This document shows positions 2,948-17,064 of a DNA stretch of 64,000 nucleotides, in pieces (the first letter of the stretch is position 1; every line of letters starts with the position of its first letter). Location of the stretch: positions 26,945 to 90,944 of the forward strand of contig JANQNG010000059.1 of the NCBI GenBank assembly GCA_028279685.1, given 5' to 3'. Source of the stretch: Candidatus Nanoarchaeia archaeon. Lineage in GTDB: Archaea; Nanobdellota; Nanobdellia; Woesearchaeales; SKIA01. The position numbers and the translations under genes are program-made. The notes below the pieces were generated by a model, which saw nothing but the letters and a program-made list of their open reading frames with translations, ran no database searches and was not told the origin of the DNA.

Positions 2948-3077
2948 GGGAACGTAGCTCAGACTGGGACGACGCCCAACTTCGGTGTTGCAGCAAAGAG
3001 CACTACGCTGAAGACGTAGGTGAGCAATTCAGAATCTGGATTACCCTAAATCCTGGGTTCAAATCCCAGCGTTCCCA
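2948..3077 (+). tRNA. tRNA-Phe(GAA) with two 28-nt introns (2969-2996 D-loop; 3023-3050 variable loop)
   Basis: Acceptor GGGAACG/CGTTCCC, anticodon arm CTACG-CTGAAGA-CGTAG, T arm CTGGG-TTCAAAT-CCCAG; both inserts fold as bulge-helix-bulge; removal gives a 74-nt cloverleaf. Confidence 0.93.
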
Positions 3078-10803: not shown

Positions 10804-11203
10804 AAGGATCATATCCTTGTTTGAGAAGATTTTGTATGGGTATAAAAAGGGGACTGGGAAGATTATTCCATGAGAACCATTCCCATCTTTCACACTTATC
10901 AGGTTCTAGAACTTCTGGTTCTCCAGAGTCAAGTTCTGCGAGAATATACAGTGTAATGTAATGTTTATTTTCTTTTTTGAAGACATCATTCGTATAAGGG
11001 CCTGTTTTCATATTTTTAATATTTATTCCTACTTCTTCCATTACCTCTCTTTCAGCACAATCTTTAGGATCTTCATTAAACTCAAGATGTCCTCCGGGAA
11101 AACTCCAAGAACCATCACCATGAGCATTTTTTCTCTTGCCCAATAATATCTTTCCGTCTCTCTTAATGATGACTCCAACTCCAACATTTGGTAATTTCCT
11201 CAT
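10793..11203 (-). CDS. NUDIX hydrolase (NUDT15/MutT-like)
   Basis: PGGHLEFNE...AEREVMEEVG Nudix box; EPDKCERWEWF. Confidence 0.92.
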   Translation of the reverse strand: MRKLPNVGVGVIIKRDGKILLGKRKNAHGDGSWSFPGGHLEFNEDPKDCAEREVMEEVGINIKNMKTGPYTNDVFKKENKHYITLYILAELDSGEPEVLEPDKCERWEWFSWNNLPSPLFIPIQNLLKQGYDPFKE

Positions 11204-11273
11204 GACAGGTAAGATTAGAGGTCTTATTTATAGTTACCGTAAACTTCTTAAATATGTTCTGGGAGAATATCCT

Positions 11274-11681
11274 ATGGATCAGATTGTGCTGAAAGTCATT
11301 ATTTTCACATTAGCTACATGGCTCTTATCAGAAGTGCTGAAACCGGTTTTTCAGAAGGATATTAGAGCTCTTTTCATGAATGGTAAAATGCCTTCATCTC
11401 ATACTGCAGTAACGGTGGCTCTTTTTGTTTGTTTGCTTATCTATGATGGCATAACACTGCTATCGTTCTTTGCATTCATTATGATGATGATTATTGTCAG
11501 AGATGCTTTCAGCGTGAGGAAGGCAGTAGGCACTAATTCAGAATATATTAATACGTTACTCAAGAAAGTAGGTATAAAGAAAAAAGTTCGAGTGGTGCAT
11601 GGACATACCTTCAATGAAGTCGTTGTGGGAGGTATTATAGGGGTTATTATTCCTGTTTTATTGTGGCTTCTTTTTGGGTAG
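11274..11681 (+). CDS. Divergent PAP2 (DUF212) membrane protein
   Basis: GKMPSSHT, DAFSVR, GHTFNEV. Confidence 0.85.
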   Translation: MDQIVLKVIIFTLATWLLSEVLKPVFQKDIRALFMNGKMPSSHTAVTVALFVCLLIYDGITLLSFFAFIMMMIIVRDAFSVRKAVGTNSEYINTLLKKVGIKKKVRVVHGHTFNEVVVGGIIGVIIPVLLWLLFG

Positions 11682-11707
11682 AGATATGACCAAGATTGAA
11701 AAGAATG

Positions 11708-12121
11708 TTATTTTATCTTTGTCAGATCTTGATTGATAATAATTGGCTTTACCGCTTTAATTTCTGTTTTACAATAAGGCATATCAGGAATAGGGTTCCA
11801 GAGAAAGACCTTCTGATTCAACACATGAGCAAACCCTATCTCCATCAGAGTATTGCCTCCGATATAATTTTTGATGTTATGTCTATCAAGGTTCAACACG
11901 AGCACAGCATCAATATGTTGCATTTGCTTCCAAAAATCTCGAATAGCATCTGATTTGTATTTTTTTTGAAGCTTAATTTTTTCTATCTCATCATCAGATT
12001 TGCCAATGAACTCATCAGCAAAAGAAGAAAGAAAGGGGATATGCCCCATTGCTTTGAGTTTGTCCCTTACTTCAAGCATTTTCTCTGTATGGTGCATAGA
12101 GCTGATTATACCTATTTTCAT
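11708..12121 (-). CDS. Nucleoside 2-deoxyribosyltransferase-like protein
   Basis: DAVLVLN...YIGGNTLMEIGFAH. Confidence 0.6.
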   Translation of the reverse strand: MKIGIISSMHHTEKMLEVRDKLKAMGHIPFLSSFADEFIGKSDDEIEKIKLQKKYKSDAIRDFWKQMQHIDAVLVLNLDRHNIKNYIGGNTLMEIGFAHVLNQKVFLWNPIPDMPYCKTEIKAVKPIIINQDLTKIK

Positions 12122-12232
12122 ATTTTTAGAGGTGCATATTCTCTTTTAAACCTTTCTTTAGTCTATAAGCATATCATAACTTTTAAAAACCAAGTTCTCG
12201 TTCTCTTTTTTATGTTCATACCTTCAGTATAT

Positions 12233-12377
12233 GCCCTCGTATCAAAGTCTTCGACTTTGGACGGATGCTCATTGGCATTCGCCTCCGTATCAAAGTCATG
12301 CGACTTTGGACGGATGCTCATTGGCATTCGCCTCCGCAATCAAAATCAGAGATTTTGGGCGGAAGCTCACTACGCTC
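12233..12377 (+). repeat. Three tandem 48-49 nt acceptor-stem minihelix units in the tRNA-Thr(TGT) leader
   Basis: Units at 12233, 12281, 12330: GCCTCCG-like 5' strand, hairpin, CGGA(T/A)GCT, linker. Confidence 0.9.
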
Positions 12378-12466
12378 GCCTCCGTAGCATAGCGGCTATT
12401 GCGGCAGACTTGTAAACAATTGTTCATGAGATCTGCAGGTCGGGGGTTCAAGTCCCCCCGGAGGCT
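12378..12466 (+). tRNA. tRNA-Thr(TGT) with canonical 37/38 intron (12415-12430, 16 nt)
   Basis: Acceptor GCCTCCG/CGGAGGC, anticodon arm GCAGA-CTTGTA^A-TCTGC, T arm GGGGG-TTCAAGT-CCCCC. Confidence 0.93.
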
Positions 12467-12571
12467 TCTTAAATTATTTGGGCTACTCAACTTTATGTTG
12501 AGTAGACCTGAGGTTGATAAGGAGATGTAGCGTAGCGAAGTTTCCTTATGTGGTAGTCCCCCTGGAGGCTT
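12451..12571 (+). repeat. Direct repeat of tRNA-Thr 3' end enclosing a two-hairpin cassette
   Basis: AGTCCCCCCGGAGGCTT (12451-12467) vs AGTCCCCCTGGAGGCTT (12555-12571). Confidence 0.75.
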
Positions 12572-12752
12572 TTTTGTTCTTTATTTTTTTTGAATGTTTG
12601 TTAAAAAACGAGTAGTTTACTTTTATGTATACCATTCATTATTAAGTGAACAAAAATAGTATACAAATTGCTAAACTATTATATCCTCCTCGAGAAAATG
12701 AAACGAAAGGTATATAAATACAGCTTCAGTTTGCTCTTTTGGGTGATAATGT

Positions 12753-13334
12753 TTGGGATGGAAGAAACTTTTGCATTCGCGTGAAACTCTCTCATTTGAG
12801 AAAGTTAAGGATGATGTGAAGGTTATTCTTGAAGCACGTCGCGTTGATGAAGGTTGGCAAGTCGTCAAGAAATATCTTTCTGAAGGCATTAATTTTGCAG
12901 AGCAATACTACGTCGAATCTGCTGATGAACTCAAAAGAGTATTACTGTATTTGAAGAATGAGAAGGATCTCTCATTACAGGAGATTAACAACATCAATAA
13001 ATTCAAAGAGAAAAATATCAAGCTTGATGTTCGCAGAGGTTACAAAGAGAATAATGTAGAGAAGTGGTATTTCTCATTAGGAGACCAATCAAGCAACTTT
13101 TTTGTGATTCGATACAATGATGTTGTTGAGATAGATATTGTGATGAATGAGAAATATAAGTATATTGAAGAGAAATTGATAATCAAGCTGATGAATTTTC
13201 TCGGATTAGATGATTCTGATGCCCATATTAATCAGAATATTTTTTACTATACTAAGAAATCTAATTATTATCTAGAGAATGATTATGACAGTGTTATGCA
13301 GGATGTTAATCTGAGCTATGAAGAGGAAGAATAA
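12753..13334 (+). CDS. Hypothetical protein
   Basis: 193-aa ORF with upstream TATA and GGTGA RBS. Confidence 0.65.
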   Translation: MGWKKLLHSRETLSFEKVKDDVKVILEARRVDEGWQVVKKYLSEGINFAEQYYVESADELKRVLLYLKNEKDLSLQEINNINKFKEKNIKLDVRRGYKENNVEKWYFSLGDQSSNFFVIRYNDVVEIDIVMNEKYKYIEEKLIIKLMNFLGLDDSDAHINQNIFYYTKKSNYYLENDYDSVMQDVNLSYEEEE

Positions 13335-13345
13335 AGCTCATCATG

Positions 13346-13446
13346 GCGCATTACTGCCCAGCGCAGTGTTCTATTTCTTATGCTATTATGCGTGAAAATA
13401 GATATCGAACATCGTATAGATGTAGAAACGGAGCGCAGTAATGCGT
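13346..13446. repeat. Palindromic cGNAg element A
   Basis: GCGCATTACTGC-CCA-GCGCAGT-N61-CGGAGC-GCAGTAATGCGT. Confidence 0.8.
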
Positions 13447-13499
13447 AACTGTATCGGTTCTTGATAATAAATGAAAAAGAAAGAGAAAAAAGTAAAACT

Positions 13500-14138
13500 T
13501 TAACTTACGGCCATAAAGAGTTCGCCTGTAATTCTCTTATCTACAGAGAATCCTTGGACACGGTAAGGAATGTTCAATCTCATTTTTATCTTCTTACCAA
13601 TATCGGAAGCAGTGATTCCTAATGTTGCTGCAGCATCATTGTTTGGATTATTATCTCCTCCTGATTCTGTTTTACAATGGATGTAGATAACATTAGATGT
13701 TTTTGGAGTTATGCTCACAGTAAGGTTTGCAGTGGATGGATCAGCATCATCATCCATGAAGCAGTATGTTGAGCCTGCGCTGCTTGGATTACCTGTGGCA
13801 TCAGTAAATGCAGGATCATCGAAATCAACTTTTACTAATGAAGAAGTTGAGACAGTATCCAAGGCTGTATCATCACCTGTAACGAAGTTTATTTGTTTAT
13901 CTGATGCAAGTAGATTAGTTAGTGTTAATGTGAAGACTTGATCTCCAGCAGCATCATATCGGACAAGTGATGCGTCTTTCTCACATGGAAGCTCTGCACC
14001 AAATCCGCAGCTTTCTGATATGTATCTGCTTGGGTCTAACACACCAAAGTATGCTAATGCGCCGATCATGACTAGGATAACTAAGAATGCCCAGCCATAG
14101 GTTGCTAAGAATTCTAAAGCAGCTTGACCTTTTTTCAT
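13500..14138 (-). CDS. Class III signal peptide (type IV pilin-like) protein
   Basis: MKKG/QAALEFLATYGWAFLVILVMIGALAYFGV. Confidence 0.88.
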   Translation of the reverse strand: MKKGQAALEFLATYGWAFLVILVMIGALAYFGVLDPSRYISESCGFGAELPCEKDASLVRYDAAGDQVFTLTLTNLLASDKQINFVTGDDTALDTVSTSSLVKVDFDDPAFTDATGNPSSAGSTYCFMDDDADPSTANLTVSITPKTSNVIYIHCKTESGGDNNPNNDAAATLGITASDIGKKIKMRLNIPYRVQGFSVDKRITGELFMAVS

Positions 14139-14315
14139 ATTGTTTCACCTCACCAAATATGTATGGTTATAACTTGTTATGGCAATATCGGAATTGAGGG
14201 TTTATAAATCTTTCTCTTTACAGCGCTTCTAGACATCATAAAGAGAGAACATAGGATGCTGTTTTATTGAAGCTCTAACGTAAATATTTAAAAATAGCTT
14301 ATTTTTCTGATAACC

Positions 14316-14468
14316 ATGGCAGCAAATACATCCATGGTTGGAGATTTGGAGACCTATGAGACTGATTGGAAGAAGGATAGAGCAAAGCATATGTTAAAGA
14401 AAATTCTTTCTTTCAAAGACAGAATACTGCGATTATTTAGAAAGAAAAACACCAAATTAAAATGGTAA
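14316..14468 (+). CDS. Small 50-aa protein coupled to alaX
   Basis: MAANTSMVGDLETYETDWKK...KLKW*; stop overlaps the next ATG (TAATG); TATA upstream. Confidence 0.5.
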   Translation: MAANTSMVGDLETYETDWKKDRAKHMLKKILSFKDRILRLFRKKNTKLKW

Positions 14469-15181
14469 TGCCGAAATACATTGAGGATGCATATTTGAAA
14501 GAATTCGTTACAAAAGTAATTTCTGTCAAAGAGGGCAAATTTGTAGTGTTGGAAGATACTATATTCTATCCAAATAGTGGAGGACAGGTTAATGATGAGG
14601 GTAAACTTATTGCTGCTGATGGTGAAGTCAATGTTATTTTTGTGGGAAAGTTTGGAGGTAGCATTAGTCATCAAGTTGAACCTGAGAATGTTTTGAAGGA
14701 AGGAGATGAAGTTACTTGTGTTCTTGATTGGGATCGCAGATACAAATTAATGAGATCCCACACCGCTGCTCATTTGATAAGTTATTTCATAGAAGAAGAA
14801 ATTGGAGCAAAGATAACTGGCAATCAACTAGGATTGGATAAGTGTCGAATAGATTTTTCTTTGGAGAATTTTGATAAAGAACTTTTGATGAGTTTTGAAT
14901 CAAAAGTTAATGCGCTTATCAAAAAAGGCGGTGAAGTTGAGTCAAAAGTTGTTAATAGAGAAGAAGCTGCAGAAATTTCTACGAAATTATCTGCGTTAGC
15001 TAAAGGATTACCTCCTGAAATAAAGGAAGTCAGATTAGTTGGTGTTAAAGGATTGGTCTTAGAAGCATGCGGTGGAACGCATGTTAAAGATATTAAAGAA
15101 ATTAGCAAGGTCAAATTCATTAAATTCAAGAACGCAGGAGCGAATAATAGAAGAATTTACTTTGAGATTCTTGACGAATAA
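14462..15181 (+). CDS. alaXM: Alanyl-tRNA editing protein AlaX-M
   Basis: TIFYPNSGGQ, HTAAH and CGGTH zinc motifs, GANNRRIY. Confidence 0.92.
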   Translation: MVMPKYIEDAYLKEFVTKVISVKEGKFVVLEDTIFYPNSGGQVNDEGKLIAADGEVNVIFVGKFGGSISHQVEPENVLKEGDEVTCVLDWDRRYKLMRSHTAAHLISYFIEEEIGAKITGNQLGLDKCRIDFSLENFDKELLMSFESKVNALIKKGGEVESKVVNREEAAEISTKLSALAKGLPPEIKEVRLVGVKGLVLEACGGTHVKDIKEISKVKFIKFKNAGANNRRIYFEILDE

Positions 15182-15219
15182 TTTTAAAAAGGCTTTTAGG
15201 ATTCTTTTCACTAACGGAT

Positions 15220-15313
15220 GCCTCCGCAATCAAAATCAGAGATTTTGGGCGGAGGCTCGTTCACTTGCCTCCGTATCAAAGTCTTCGACTTTGGACGGAT
15301 GCTCATTTCATTC
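15220..15313 (+). repeat. Two tandem 47-nt acceptor-stem minihelix units in the tRNA-Thr(GGT) leader
   Basis: Same two unit types as at 12233-12377, in different order. Confidence 0.9.
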
Positions 15314-15431
15314 GCCTCCGTAGCTCAGTGGTTAGACCAAAGCTTGCTAAAGAGCGCTTAGAATTGACTTTGTCTTTTCTCGCTTGACCTTGGTAAGGTA
15401 GAGGTCGCGAGTTCAACTCTCGCCGGGGGCT
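15314..15431 (+). tRNA. tRNA-Thr(GGT) with two introns (15333-15350 D-loop; 15359-15386 anticodon stem)
   Basis: Acceptor GCCTCCG/CGGGGGC; spliced anticodon arm CT^ACC-TTGGTAA-GGTAG; BHB helices AGTG/TGCT and AGCG/CGCT; 72 nt mature. Confidence 0.92.
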
Positions 15432-15497
15432 TCTCTTTATAAAAAGATGATATTTTAGGAGAAAGATTAATATAGTTGATGTTGATCTCAGCATTGT

Positions 15498-15980
15498 ATG
15501 GGATGTAATTGTAACGTAGATTTTGAAAAGCTCTCCAGAGATGTTGTACCTTCTTTTGCAATTCACTTTGACTATAAAGATGGTGAAGAATTTCCTTATA
15601 CGGCCTCATACAGTGGAGATATAATGCCGTATATGAAACTTCCAGATCGAGAAGGAGAAATTAGAAATGTTGGGGGTGTAGGACTTGATTTCCTTCTTGG
15701 CAATGTTATGAGCAATATTAGTCAAATGTTTGGATATACAAAACTGAGTTCCAAGGAGGCAATAACATTTTCTAATAAACTGGAATTGACTTTTTCGGAG
15801 AAGATTGACAAAGGTTCTAGAGTAATTGCTAAGAAAACTTTGAAAACGTATATTCGTGAGTATCAAGGAAGGAACTTTAGCAGACTAGGCGAAAATGGAG
15901 AGAAAATTACATCAATGCCTGAAATGCTCTGTGTAAGGAGAGTTTTTTATCCTCTCAAGGAGAAATATAGTGTTCTTTAA
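15498..15980 (+). CDS. Hypothetical protein
   Basis: 160-aa ORF, no motif recognised. Confidence 0.55.
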   Translation: MGCNCNVDFEKLSRDVVPSFAIHFDYKDGEEFPYTASYSGDIMPYMKLPDREGEIRNVGGVGLDFLLGNVMSNISQMFGYTKLSSKEAITFSNKLELTFSEKIDKGSRVIAKKTLKTYIREYQGRNFSRLGENGEKITSMPEMLCVRRVFYPLKEKYSVL

Positions 15981-16956
15981 ACGGGAAGAAATTCAGTTTA
16001 TGTTCTTTTAATATGAGCAAAGAATCGTAGTTTATTATATTTTCAGTAAATTTATTCCTTAATTTGAGCATAAAGCTATGGAATTCGTAGACATTATTAA
16101 CTTCTATATCTAGTTCATAATTCCAAGAACCCATCATCCTTACAACATCCATAACGCATTCAGTTGATTTAGCATATTCGTTAAATGCTTGTTCTTCTTT
16201 TTCTGAGAAAAACCGCGTGTTTAGCAGTATTTTGTAGTAGGTTATTCCAATAAGTTCTTTGTTTAGGATTATTGTAGATCCTTCAATTATGTTTTGTTCT
16301 ATTAGTCTTTTCATTCTGGTGGTAATTTTATCCACACTACATCCTATTTCCCTTGCTATTTCTGTAATTGGTTTTCTTGCGTCTGCACATAATGAAGTTA
16401 AAATCTTTACTTCGTATTCATCAAGATTATATTTTTCTGGTTCAGCACCCCAGTAAGGACTCGCTGTTCCATCTCTTTTTGTATCTGTGAGATATGATTT
16501 TTTCAAATGAGATACATCGATGTAGTTTAGAGGAGTTATTTCTCTAATATATTTGCTGTAATTTCTATTTATTTCATTTAACAATTGATATGCATGAACA
16601 TTATTTCTTGAAACAGGTGCTATAACGATATCATAAGTTCCTTCGCATGTAGCAACCCAAACAATAAATGGATGATTTACGAAGTCTTGAACTATATTTT
16701 GTAGTTTTTCAGCAGTTACATTTTGAAGTTTGATGTAAAATTTGTATGCGACATATCCTAATTTTGGTCCATTAACGAATAATAGTGTTTGTTCTATTAT
16801 TTTACGTTCAATAAGCTTATCTATTCTGTATTTTACGGCCTGCTTTGTGAGGTTAACTTTCTTAGCAATCATTGAAAGGCTAGCTCTTGCATCAAGATCT
16901 AATTCATAGAGTATTTTTCTATCCTTTGAAGTTAGTTTAACAATGTTCTTGGCCAT
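15955..16956 (-). CDS. Double-domain Lrp/AsnC transcriptional regulator
   Basis: Two HTH-RAM units (DRKILYELDLDAR..; KILTSLCADARKP..; GTYD / GSWNYE). Confidence 0.9.
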   Translation of the reverse strand: MAKNIVKLTSKDRKILYELDLDARASLSMIAKKVNLTKQAVKYRIDKLIERKIIEQTLLFVNGPKLGYVAYKFYIKLQNVTAEKLQNIVQDFVNHPFIVWVATCEGTYDIVIAPVSRNNVHAYQLLNEINRNYSKYIREITPLNYIDVSHLKKSYLTDTKRDGTASPYWGAEPEKYNLDEYEVKILTSLCADARKPITEIAREIGCSVDKITTRMKRLIEQNIIEGSTIILNKELIGITYYKILLNTRFFSEKEEQAFNEYAKSTECVMDVVRMMGSWNYELDIEVNNVYEFHSFMLKLRNKFTENIINYDSLLILKEHKLNFFPFKEHYISP

Positions 16957-17064
16957 AATATTTACAAAATATTGTTTTTTTTATAAATTTTCCGTTTTTG
17001 TAAAAATTTTTAATGAAAAGTTTAATAAATGCCAAATTACTATCAAGTAGTTACAAATAGGTGA

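Follow-up and report, generated by a model that had tools for sequence, protein, structure and literature searches.

Arrays of acceptor-stem-like units in tRNA-Thr leaders of a Nanoarchaeia genome, a proposed small recombining passenger

Repeat units in the leaders of two tRNA-Thr genes

Two tRNA-Thr genes lie in the window, i.e., the whole stretch of 64,000 nucleotides analysed here, and each is preceded by an array of short repeat units. The tRNA-Thr(UGU) gene follows three units of 48-49 nt (array 1, 12233-12377), and a second, two-intron tRNA-Thr gene follows two units of 47 nt (array 2, 15220-15313). In each unit, the first 7-9 bases of the tRNA are followed by a hairpin rich in A and U, by the complement of these bases, and then by a U and a linker of 9-11 nt. 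The features of the locus are the following.

12181..12189, + strand: TATA-like box of array 1, 52 nt before unit 1, farther than the 29-38 nt typical of 19 of 24 arrays
12233..12280, + strand: unit 1, alpha type, with a degenerate 5' strand (GCCCTCG), inner hairpin, CGGATGC, T and an 11-nt linker (sequence, repeat finder, fold)
12281..12329, + strand: unit 2, alpha type, with a hairpin loop of 4 nt (sequence, repeat finder; minihelix register in the minimum-energy fold)
12330..12377, + strand: unit 3, beta type, complement CGGAAGC (sequence, repeat finder, fold)
12378..12466, + strand: tRNA-Thr(UGU) with a 16-nt intron (Rfam, 56.6 bits; ARAGORN with introns)
12480..12570, + strand: structured trailer element, a 12-bp hairpin and conserved core, then a copy of the tRNA 3' end (12556-12570, 1 mismatch), then a long T run
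14468..15181, + strand: alaX, a free-standing editing protein of AlaRS/ThrRS type (Pfam, C-terminal part of tRNA-synt_2c and tRNA_SAD)
15182..15190, + strand: TATA-like box of array 2, 38 nt before unit 4
15214..15221, + strand: remnant of an alpha-type complement strand joined to the start of unit 4 (direct sequence reading)
15220..15266, + strand: unit 4, beta type, with a perfect complement (CGGAGGC; sequence, repeat finder, fold)
15267..15313, + strand: unit 5, alpha type (sequence, repeat finder, fold)
15314..15431, + strand: second tRNA-Thr with two non-canonical introns (Rfam, 36.7 bits; inserts of 19 and 41 nt)

The arrays that the initial annotation had placed ahead of both tRNA-Thr genes were recovered by reading the sequence and by a repeat finder, which returned the units as one family (D1) of five copies spaced 49, 49, 2890 and 46. 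The 3' strands of units 1 to 5 read CGGATGC, CGGATGC, CGGAAGC, CGGAGGC and CGGATGC, with a T after each, and the TTTTAAAA boxes were located at 12181 and 15182. The alpha and beta types both occur at two genes whose remaining flanks do not match, and the modular shuffling between the two loci that had been proposed for them holds. The alpha complement remnant fused to the start of unit 4 suggests an internal deletion in array 2. Besides, the inner hairpin of unit 3 has a 15-nt core and a loop in common with a unit of another genome (G392). For the second tRNA-Thr, the anticodon is probably GGU, with the anticodon and the intron borders read by eye.

The units do not form the tRNA cloverleaf of Rfam (RF00005), since each has one inner hairpin, and they lack the identical repeats and unique spacers of a CRISPR array, there being two unit types, no unique spacer and no Cas1. 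A split or permuted tRNA gene, or an intron of the bulge-helix-bulge kind, was rejected by eye. A full-length tRNA-Thr follows the units, and the unit junctions, inspected by eye, form 2x1 or 3x2 internal loops and not two 3-nt bulges 4 bp apart.

The stop codon of alaX abuts the TATA-like box of array 2, and a functional tie between this gene and the units had been suggested initially. While alaX itself is real, as judged by Pfam, the tie found no support: the two closest alaX loci elsewhere have no adjoining tRNA, so that the adjacency is not kept and the link was rejected. Leader units of other genomes also sit after genes other than alaX.

In 19 of 24 arrays, the first unit follows a TATA-like hexamer at a distance of 29-38 nt, and the same spacing was found ahead of ordinary tRNAs of this genome. 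Because of this position, the units are probably co-transcribed as part of the tRNA leader, in line with the initial annotation. No T run of 5 or more was read inside the arrays of the window. An internal promoter within the units was also considered, since in some genomes the inner hairpin has its T-rich strand 25-33 nt ahead of tRNA +1, at the place expected for a TATA box; in the window this strand is not TATA-like, and the reading was not adopted. The minimum-energy fold of leader plus tRNA places four of the five units in the minihelix register, with z-scores of -4.5 and -4.6 and none of 200 shuffles folding as well. The acceptor-like stems of the units almost always carry 1-2 mismatches whereas the tRNA's own stem is perfect, for which reason the tRNA fold is predicted to win.

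It is very improbable that the arrays are an assembly artefact of collapsed or chimeric repeats. Repeats of 47-49 nt do break a de Bruijn graph, and the contigs of the one public sequencing run found to contain this DNA, no RNA run being listed for the locus, are split at each unit; however, these contigs overlap and tile both arrays with zero differences at an even depth of 12-14, although the run is possibly the source sample and thus not independent. In addition, loops and linkers tell the units apart, and the same architecture was found in 20 independently assembled genomes. The possibility of mis-assembly raised at the outset is countered by the agreement with that run, subject to its possible identity with the source.

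Distribution, co-variation and turnover of the units

Searching the genome (1.9 Mb, 92% complete) with a loose motif for the hairpin core gave 20 loci, 11 of them within 150 nt of a tRNA called by program and 3 more beside tRNAs recognised by eye. With 14 of the 20 loci beside tRNAs (3 by eye), the hairpin core is not scattered over the genome without a link to tRNAs, as had been considered at first for the units. Two of the three tRNA-Thr genes of this genome have the 5' copy, the third being without it, and in five genomes the copy precedes 3/3 tRNAs readable as Thr versus 1/27 others.

A DNA-level comparison with other genomes matched nothing of the query except the tRNA, and pattern searches were therefore used to find relatives. 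In a sample of 400 further genomes of the same order, 20 (~5%), belonging to 15 families, have similar units ahead of tRNA-Thr genes, and a stricter pattern was found in 4 of the 400. A draw at the phylum level gave nine other matching genomes, eight of which belong to the same order. Among ~120 genomes outside the order no convincing unit was detected, the lone match resembling a coding repeat. The spread across the order is patchy, and the number of units per array varies from 1 to 3, with an exact tandem duplicate in one genome (G282).

When the units are aligned across genomes, the copy matches each genome's own tRNA and the complement tracks the copy. In 24 aligned units, 80% of the cells pair, versus 25-49% with the partners slid; two-sided changes occur at pairs 4:69 and 6:67, and none of 500 shuffles reached the observed score (0/500). 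Units that co-vary with the adjacent tRNA, for which the initial annotation had proposed to look in relatives, were thus found in some genomes of the order. Eight of the 24 units, found in 7 genomes, share a C.U mismatch at pair 3:70, and different families keep the linker motif.

Comparison of genomes of the same genus revealed a rapid turnover. In one such pair (G145 and G273), flanks are 97% and the tRNA 99% identical, with the unit at 85%, i.e., the unit of this pair evolves faster than its flanks. In another pair (G242 and G180), flanks are 76-80% identical and the units just 53% alike. On the other hand, two further pairs (G336 with G397 and G191 with G252) have flanks that cannot be aligned (44-46%) and units that are 70-80% alike. 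Like units are thus found in unrelated contexts and unlike units in conserved contexts.

Trailer elements and comparison with known systems

The trailer element at 12480..12570 has relatives beside at least seven other tRNAs of this genome, and also at tRNAs of three other genomes (G017, G020 and G044). The hairpin of the units, here called H2, and the motif of the linker, which is the loop of H1, recur in trailers of Glu, Ser, Cys, Gly, Ile and Gln tRNAs of this genome and of G087, G088 and G113. H1, the second hairpin of the trailer elements, corresponds to the complement of a unit together with the linker and the next copy. Besides, a duplicate of the tRNA 3' end, from the T-loop onwards and into the terminator, lies 40-225 nt downstream of 8 of the 32 tRNA calls of this genome; in five other genomes, 12 of 30 tRNAs have one. 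No ORF or integrase lies between these repeats, and inverted copies of tRNA segments are common in tRNA flanks. A repeat of the 3' part, of the att type, is found in the trailers of other tRNAs and not in the leader units, where the repeated bases are 1-7 to 1-14. That the trailer element is a tRNA on the opposite strand was rejected, as the arms misfit and a U.G pair would turn into C.A. Four matches to the trailer pattern were discounted, one (G099) that resembles an ordinary tRNA on the other strand and three (G142, G029 and G067) that lie inside a protein-coding gene.

With Rfam 15, no match other than tRNA was obtained in window positions 11000-17000 at E <= 1, in the whole window at the gathering score, or in 10 related loci at E <= 0.1; a weak mascRNA match in 11000-17000 falls on the tRNA itself. 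A literature search turned up no such element. Both searches agree with the initial statement that this is not a described element.

Several known systems nevertheless share features with the units. The mascRNA at the 3' end of MALAT1 and tRNA-snoRNA dicistrons are tRNA-like processing elements with a full cloverleaf and a documented product. The units likewise have a tRNA-like fold within a longer transcript that could be excised by RNase P and RNase Z, but they consist of an acceptor-like stem only and their product is putative. REP-like repeats and MITEs are non-coding imperfect palindromes of 40-60 nt with a variable copy number and a patchy occurrence. All of this is also true of the units, which differ in that they lie at tRNA ends only, have outer arms made of the target's own sequence, and have no matching transposase among the enzymes searched in this genome (Y1, TnpB and Cas1). 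The insert lies between direct repeats, and the unit itself is palindromic. IS200/IS605-type hairpin transposons, casposons and retroelements were rejected because Y1 transposase, TnpB above the cut-off, Cas1 and reverse transcriptase were all missing from this 92%-complete genome. The genome has 4-5 tyrosine recombinase genes; none lies beside these tRNAs, and an integrase-linked element was therefore rejected as well.

Fragments of tRNA next to intact tRNA genes are described in two papers as leftovers of integrating elements (PMC9897764, PMC3293823). As in those cases, partial tRNA copies adjoin the intact gene here, and the trailers copy the T-loop to the 3' end and beyond; unlike them, a leader unit takes up just the first 7-14 bases together with their complement, there is no element or integrase in between, and the inserts are 40-100 nt long with common conserved hairpins. 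Acceptor-stem minihelices are treated in a review as substrates for laboratory work and as a model for the ancestor of tRNA (PMC4033280). The units resemble them in having a 7-bp acceptor-like stem, a discriminator base and a second stacked hairpin. However, the known minihelices are synthetic or hypothetical, whereas the units are encoded in a genome and in a leader, have an A/U-rich hairpin for the T arm, and usually contain mismatches; the passages of this review on minihelices and leaders describe no natural minihelix gene. The same source mentions leader sequences of split tRNA genes in Nanoarchaeum (PMC4033280). These share with the units a DPANN host and a tRNA-adjacent sequence that pairs with a complementary stretch, but they have no full-length copy and are joined at a bulge-helix-bulge, whereas here the tRNA is full-length and that motif is absent by eye.

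Interpretation of the units

In the reading that we propose, with a probability of about 0.5, the units are a small insertion module that recombines, is associated with tRNA-Thr at its 5' end, folds back on itself and is taken off by RNase P. The units would be the tandem-amplified form of a small DNA module that occurs at tRNA-Thr 5' ends in a DPANN-type order and that is made of the first 7-14 tRNA bases, the A/U-rich hairpin H2, the complement, and a U with a linker containing the conserved motif. We infer how the module may recombine, be transcribed and be processed as follows. Because direct repeats of the tRNA 5' end flank it, the module could be amplified, lost and transferred between Thr genes by recombination, and it has apparently been swapped between genomes as well. 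The RNA would start at about the first unit, and each unit, once made, would fold on itself and so keep its complement off the tRNA's own 5' strand. RNase P, which is RNA-based here as the RNase P RNA was found in this genome, would then cleave at tRNA +1 and the leader would be thrown away, while tRNase Z may cleave past each U. A leader that folds on itself and is discarded would be tolerated, and the module is taken to have little if any function of its own. The initial annotation had left two alternatives, tRNA mimics without an anticodon and a tiny element at tRNA 5' ends that is processed away; the latter is the better fit, considering the mismatch between units and contexts, the patchiness, the copy number and the trailer modules. 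In behaviour the units resemble a tiny passenger that recombines, and not additional tRNAs.

Some observations count against this recombining module. An enzyme able to move it was not found among the families searched in this 92%-complete genome, the strong Thr specificity has no explanation under it, and the C.U mismatch at 3:70 and the conserved linker motif hint at constraint. The exact start of the copied segment at tRNA +1 is explained more easily by selection on an RNA than by DNA insertion. The units might instead be functional Thr-specific RNAs, i.e., minihelices of ~38 nt (G1-C72, C2-G71, U73) freed by RNase P and tRNase Z and acting in trans, with ThrRS, an editing factor, the CCA-adding enzyme or a nuclease that targets tRNA-Thr as proposed partners. 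We consider this unlikely. It would account for the Thr specificity of the 5' copies, their start at +1 with a U after the complement that resembles the discriminator base of a tRNA, the co-variation with the tRNA, the recurrent C.U mismatch (8 of 24 units), the conserved linker motif and the stable predicted folds, and minihelices are known as substrates of tRNA enzymes, as the review relates (PMC4033280). Yet only ~5% of the sampled genomes of the order carry units, the third tRNA-Thr gene of this genome has none, the units evolve faster than their flanks and are replaced within a genus, stem mismatches accumulate uncompensated, many other tRNAs have the same modules in their trailers, and the alaX adjacency is not kept. 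A more elaborate version, to which we give only a slim chance, holds that these are natural minihelix genes whose ~38-nt RNA, cut by RNase P and tRNase Z, carries a deliberate C3.U70 flaw and acts in trans as a decoy or regulator of threonine translation, by way of ThrRS, its editing partner or a nuclease or toxin directed against tRNA-Thr, the trailers being sister devices made from the same two hairpins.

The units could also act in cis, as a folding switch that tunes tRNA-Thr maturation, in which the complement pairs either with the upstream copy, leaving the tRNA free, or with the real tRNA 5' end, hiding the RNase P site. The alignment backs both registers equally, with 80% and 78% of the cells paired; the conserved linker motif forms the loop of the hairpin that would block the tRNA, and this hairpin, H1, is kept in the trailer elements as well. 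However, no ligand or factor is in sight, minimum-energy folds favour the register with the free tRNA, copy number is variable with a fast turnover, and the spread is patchy, which together make a switch improbable. Little more probable are relics left at tRNA genes either by site-specific integration or by error-prone template-switch (quasi-palindrome) repair, in which case the units would not be an element in themselves. The downstream duplications of tRNA 3' ends (8/32 here and 12/30 in five other genomes) and the inverted copies in the flanks speak for such relics, and duplication of the 3' end is a known signature of integration at tRNA genes in the papers cited above (PMC9897764, PMC3293823). 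Still, the leader units repeat the 5' end and not the 3' part, and the gaps between the repeats are short (40-100 nt), without genes or integrase. The same hairpins and loop motif also recur across genomes and at different tRNAs, which random repair would not produce.

If the units are recombining modules, they would represent very small, enzyme-less passengers that mimic their target and persist through the tRNA processing of the host, and a new way for tRNA genes to gather insertions besides introns, splits and integration scars. If they are minihelices, genome-encoded acceptor-stem minihelices would offer a testable object for the operational RNA code and the origin of tRNA. The C3.U70 mismatch and the conserved linker motif are concrete biochemical handles under either reading. 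In several of these genomes, about one-third to one-half of the tRNAs have partial self-echoes, which may mislead tRNA finders and callers of integration sites.

Leader arrays of the two tRNA-Thr genes

The initial annotation had described rows of tRNA-Thr acceptor-stem minihelices ahead of both tRNA-Thr genes of the window, and this observation is confirmed and generalised here. Each leader unit consists of a copy of the tRNA-Thr 5' end, an A/U-rich inner hairpin, the complement of the copy, a U/T and a linker. Direct reading and a repeat finder placed the units as follows.

12233-12280, 12281-12329 and 12330-12377: three units of array 1, abutting the tRNA at 12378-12466
15220-15266 and 15267-15313: two units of array 2, abutting the tRNA at 15314-15431

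The repeat finder returned one five-copy family, with spacings of 49, 49, 2890 and 46 nt. The first gene (Rfam, 56.6 bits) was called by ARAGORN, with introns allowed, as a tRNA-Thr(UGU) whose intron measures 16 nt. For the second (36.7 bits, with inserts of 19 and 41 nt required), inspection by eye indicated a tRNA-Thr(GGU) interrupted by two non-canonical introns. All units carry the 5' strand GCCTCCG except unit 1 (GCCCTCG), and their complement strand is CGGATGC, CGGAAGC or CGGAGGC, followed by T and a linker of 9-11 nt. The inner hairpin is of one of two types, alpha or beta, and direct reading agrees with the order given previously, in which array 1 runs alpha-alpha-beta and array 2 beta-alpha. 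In array 2, the stump of an alpha complement strand (15214-15221) is fused to the leading unit. According to the repeat finder, the identical two unit types occur at both genes, and the remaining flanks of these genes have no similarity. Mis-assembly, a concern raised earlier, is not borne out, as contigs from the sole public run containing this DNA, possibly the source sample, tile both arrays without any difference at a depth of 12-14. No RNA run was found to contain this locus.

When leader and tRNA were folded together, four of the five units adopted a self-contained minihelix register (z-scores of -4.5 and -4.6). Across 24 aligned units (A2), copy and complement pair in 80% of the cells, compared with 25-49% for slid partners, and two-sided changes occur at pairs 4:69 and 6:67, with an observed score reached by none of 500 shuffles. 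Mismatches in these 24 units cluster at pairs 3:70 and 5:68 (nine unpaired cells each), the former being C.U in eight rows and C.A in one. An alternative register, in which the complement binds the real tRNA 5' end and the linker lies in the loop, gives 78% pairing; as the two registers score alike, these data cannot choose between them. The co-variation is no proof of RNA function either, since the strands could also be kept matched by templated copying or hairpin-directed correction.

In 19 of 24 arrays, a TATA-like hexamer precedes the first unit by 29-38 nt; the window's array 2 (38 nt) is among them, and array 1 has the hexamer at 52 nt. The box of ordinary tRNAs in this genome (G000) is about as far from +1, and the first unit therefore occupies the position of a tRNA. 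Runs of five or more T are absent from both window arrays on direct reading. From these sequence features we infer a single transcript that would start at about the first unit and continue into the tRNA; at the first locus it would probably extend through a trailer element as far as the long runs of T at 12570-12600.

Related elements downstream of other tRNAs

The inner hairpin is linked to tRNA genes. A loose motif for it matched 20 loci in G000; 11 of these are no more than 150 nt from a program-called tRNA, and three more adjoin tRNAs recognised only by eye. Structured trailer elements follow many of the tRNAs. Printed flanks revealed one kind, the T-loop trailer, downstream of tRNA-Glu (two genes), Ser, Cys, Gly, Ile and Gln. 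It opens with the T-loop region copied in reverse, a short loop and a direct copy of the T-stem and first half-loop, continues with an A/U-rich hairpin of the same kind as in the units (H2) and a second hairpin with an 11-12-nt loop (H1), and ends in the rest of the tRNA, from T-loop to discriminator base, often running into a T-rich trailer. The reverse copy in these four-helix trailer elements matches each tRNA's own T-loop variant, e.g., that of tRNA-Cys. The other kind combines a conserved core with a 12-bp hairpin whose arms co-vary, and after these the tRNA 3' end is repeated. It is found beside at least seven other tRNAs of G000 besides the window gene, two on the opposite strand and abutting the tRNA 3' end.

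Four-helix trailer elements (loci L014-L019 and L044), by contig of G000: C18:22379-22460, C18:14933-15016, C18:179979-180068, C79:135473-135560, C79:90755, C6:41034-41116, C24:122875-122960
12-bp-hairpin trailer behind tRNA-Thr(UGU): window, about 12480-12575, ending in a long T run

A search of 150 other genomes detected the T-loop trailer pattern in G087, G088 (three copies, two in tandem) and G113, each copy behind a tRNA and ending in its own 3' end; a match in G099 was discounted since it resembles an ordinary tRNA. Among the matches inspected, the core of the 12-bp-hairpin trailer was found behind tRNAs in G017, G020 (three copies) and G044, and three matches were discounted as coding sequence; the pattern has five matches beyond these. 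Tandem trailer arrays were observed behind a tRNA in G282 (three units of 105 nt, L100) and in G088 (two of 114 nt, L037), each unit closing with the 3' end of that tRNA. In G000, the tRNA-Asn/tRNA-Ile spacer (L019, C24:122529-122670) contains the tRNA-Asn 3' end once more; it also includes a stretch that recalls a hammerhead core at first glance, and no ribozyme is claimed.

In G000, eight of 32 tRNA calls have an exact copy of the 3' acceptor 7-mer within 400 nt downstream (about 0.8 expected by chance) and six of these eight also repeat the last 13 bases. Among the same calls, the 5' acceptor 7-mer is repeated upstream of the two Thr genes of the window and as a 5' fragment before a tRNA-Glu, and a further repeat, upstream of C78:37979, is a paralogous tRNA; no 5' repeat accompanies the third Thr gene (CGU), which lies outside the window. 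Of 30 tRNA loci from five genomes having Thr units, four have a 10-mer 5' copy within 160 nt (one mismatch allowed); three of these four are readable as Thr, the only Thr genes recognised in the set. The fourth, of another isotype in G178, has a leader resembling a hollowed-out tRNA copy. The last 12 bases are repeated within 260 nt downstream in 12 of the 30, some of them in the tandem arrays of G282 and G088. Upstream of tRNA-Glu(CUC), at L014 (C18:22190-22272), a copy of tRNA bases 1-12 is followed by two hairpins, one A/U-rich, and bases 13-24, which looks like a 5' tRNA fragment carrying an insertion. A 5' tRNA copy was also seen upstream of tRNA-Thr at L109 (G087, C3).

Leader units in relatives and their possible origin

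The strict Thr leader-unit pattern occurs in four of 400 other genomes, and a relaxed one, which asks for the Thr 5' end twice at a spacing of 28-58 nt, in 20 of the 400, from 15 families and with one to three units each. A phylum-level draw gave matches in nine other genomes, eight of the same order; the ninth, among about 120 genomes of other orders, resembles a coding repeat. In relatives with units the copy reaches base 11-14 and the complement spans bases 1-11. The beta hairpin of the window shares a 15-nt core and loop with the unit of G392, G191 also has the alpha complement strand, and an identical 10-nt linker is found in G191, G252 and G085. The loop of H1 in the trailer elements has the same motif as the linker, roughly TC-R-C-T ... 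C-G-Y-T-C.

Identity of units, tRNAs and flanks in pairs of related genomes
G145 and G273, same genus: flanks 97%, tRNA 99%, unit 85% with no clearly compensatory change
G242 and G180, same genus: flanks 76-80%, tRNA 57% (first 75 nt), unit 53%
G336 and G397, same genus: flanks 44-46%, unalignable, tRNA 65% (first 75 nt), unit 80%
G191 and G252, same family: flanks 44-46%, unalignable, tRNA 61% (first 75 nt), unit 70%

Rapid drift, like units in unrelated sites and unlike units at one site characterise a recombining or mobile module and not a conserved regulatory RNA. We favour, with a probability of about 0.5, a small recombining module attached to the tRNA-Thr 5' end, which would be built of the two hairpins also used in other tRNAs' trailer elements, would have been amplified in tandem in this genome, and may be transcribed as a self-folding leader and then taken off by RNase P. 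The exact +1 boundary of the copy, the recurrent C3.U70 and the conserved linker speak for a Thr-specific functional minihelix or for a folding switch; we regard the minihelix as unlikely and the switch as less likely still.

Genomic context and tRNA gene set

In G000 (1.9 Mb, 36% G+C, 80 contigs, 92% complete; same-order relatives 0.6-2.7 Mb), no Y1 transposase, Cas1 or reverse transcriptase was found, nor any TnpB above the cut-off, and none of its four or five tyrosine recombinase genes adjoins the element-bearing tRNAs. The alaX gene noted upstream of one array is real (Pfam), but its suggested link to the array is not upheld, since two related alaX loci lack a tRNA and units elsewhere follow other genes. 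The units do appear to be undescribed, as had been supposed: units and trailer elements match no Rfam family except tRNA, and literature searches returned no such tRNA leader units. PMC3293823 and PMC9897764 describe integrating elements that leave tRNA fragments. Split-gene leaders are treated in passages of PMC4033280, which present the minihelix as a laboratory substrate and hypothetical ancestor and mention no natural minihelix gene. Parts of a 2026 preprint on Nanobdellota genomes (10.64898/2026.05.13.725050) give tRNA counts and possible split tRNAs and report no flank elements.

G000 has an archaeal RNase P RNA (128 bits). Rfam detects 26 tRNAs, many intron-bearing, ARAGORN only 22, and at least three more (Ser, Glu-UUC and a long-arm tRNA on C79) are visible by eye only; standard finders therefore undercount the tRNAs of this lineage. 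A third tRNA of the window (2948-3077, 49.2 bits), missed by the default mode of ARAGORN, is about 130 nt long and must therefore carry introns. A small conserved CxxC ORF lies directly upstream of tRNA-Thr at L004, L012, L067, L070 and G000 C24:127400-127625, a gene order conserved in several genomes of the order whether leader units are present or not.
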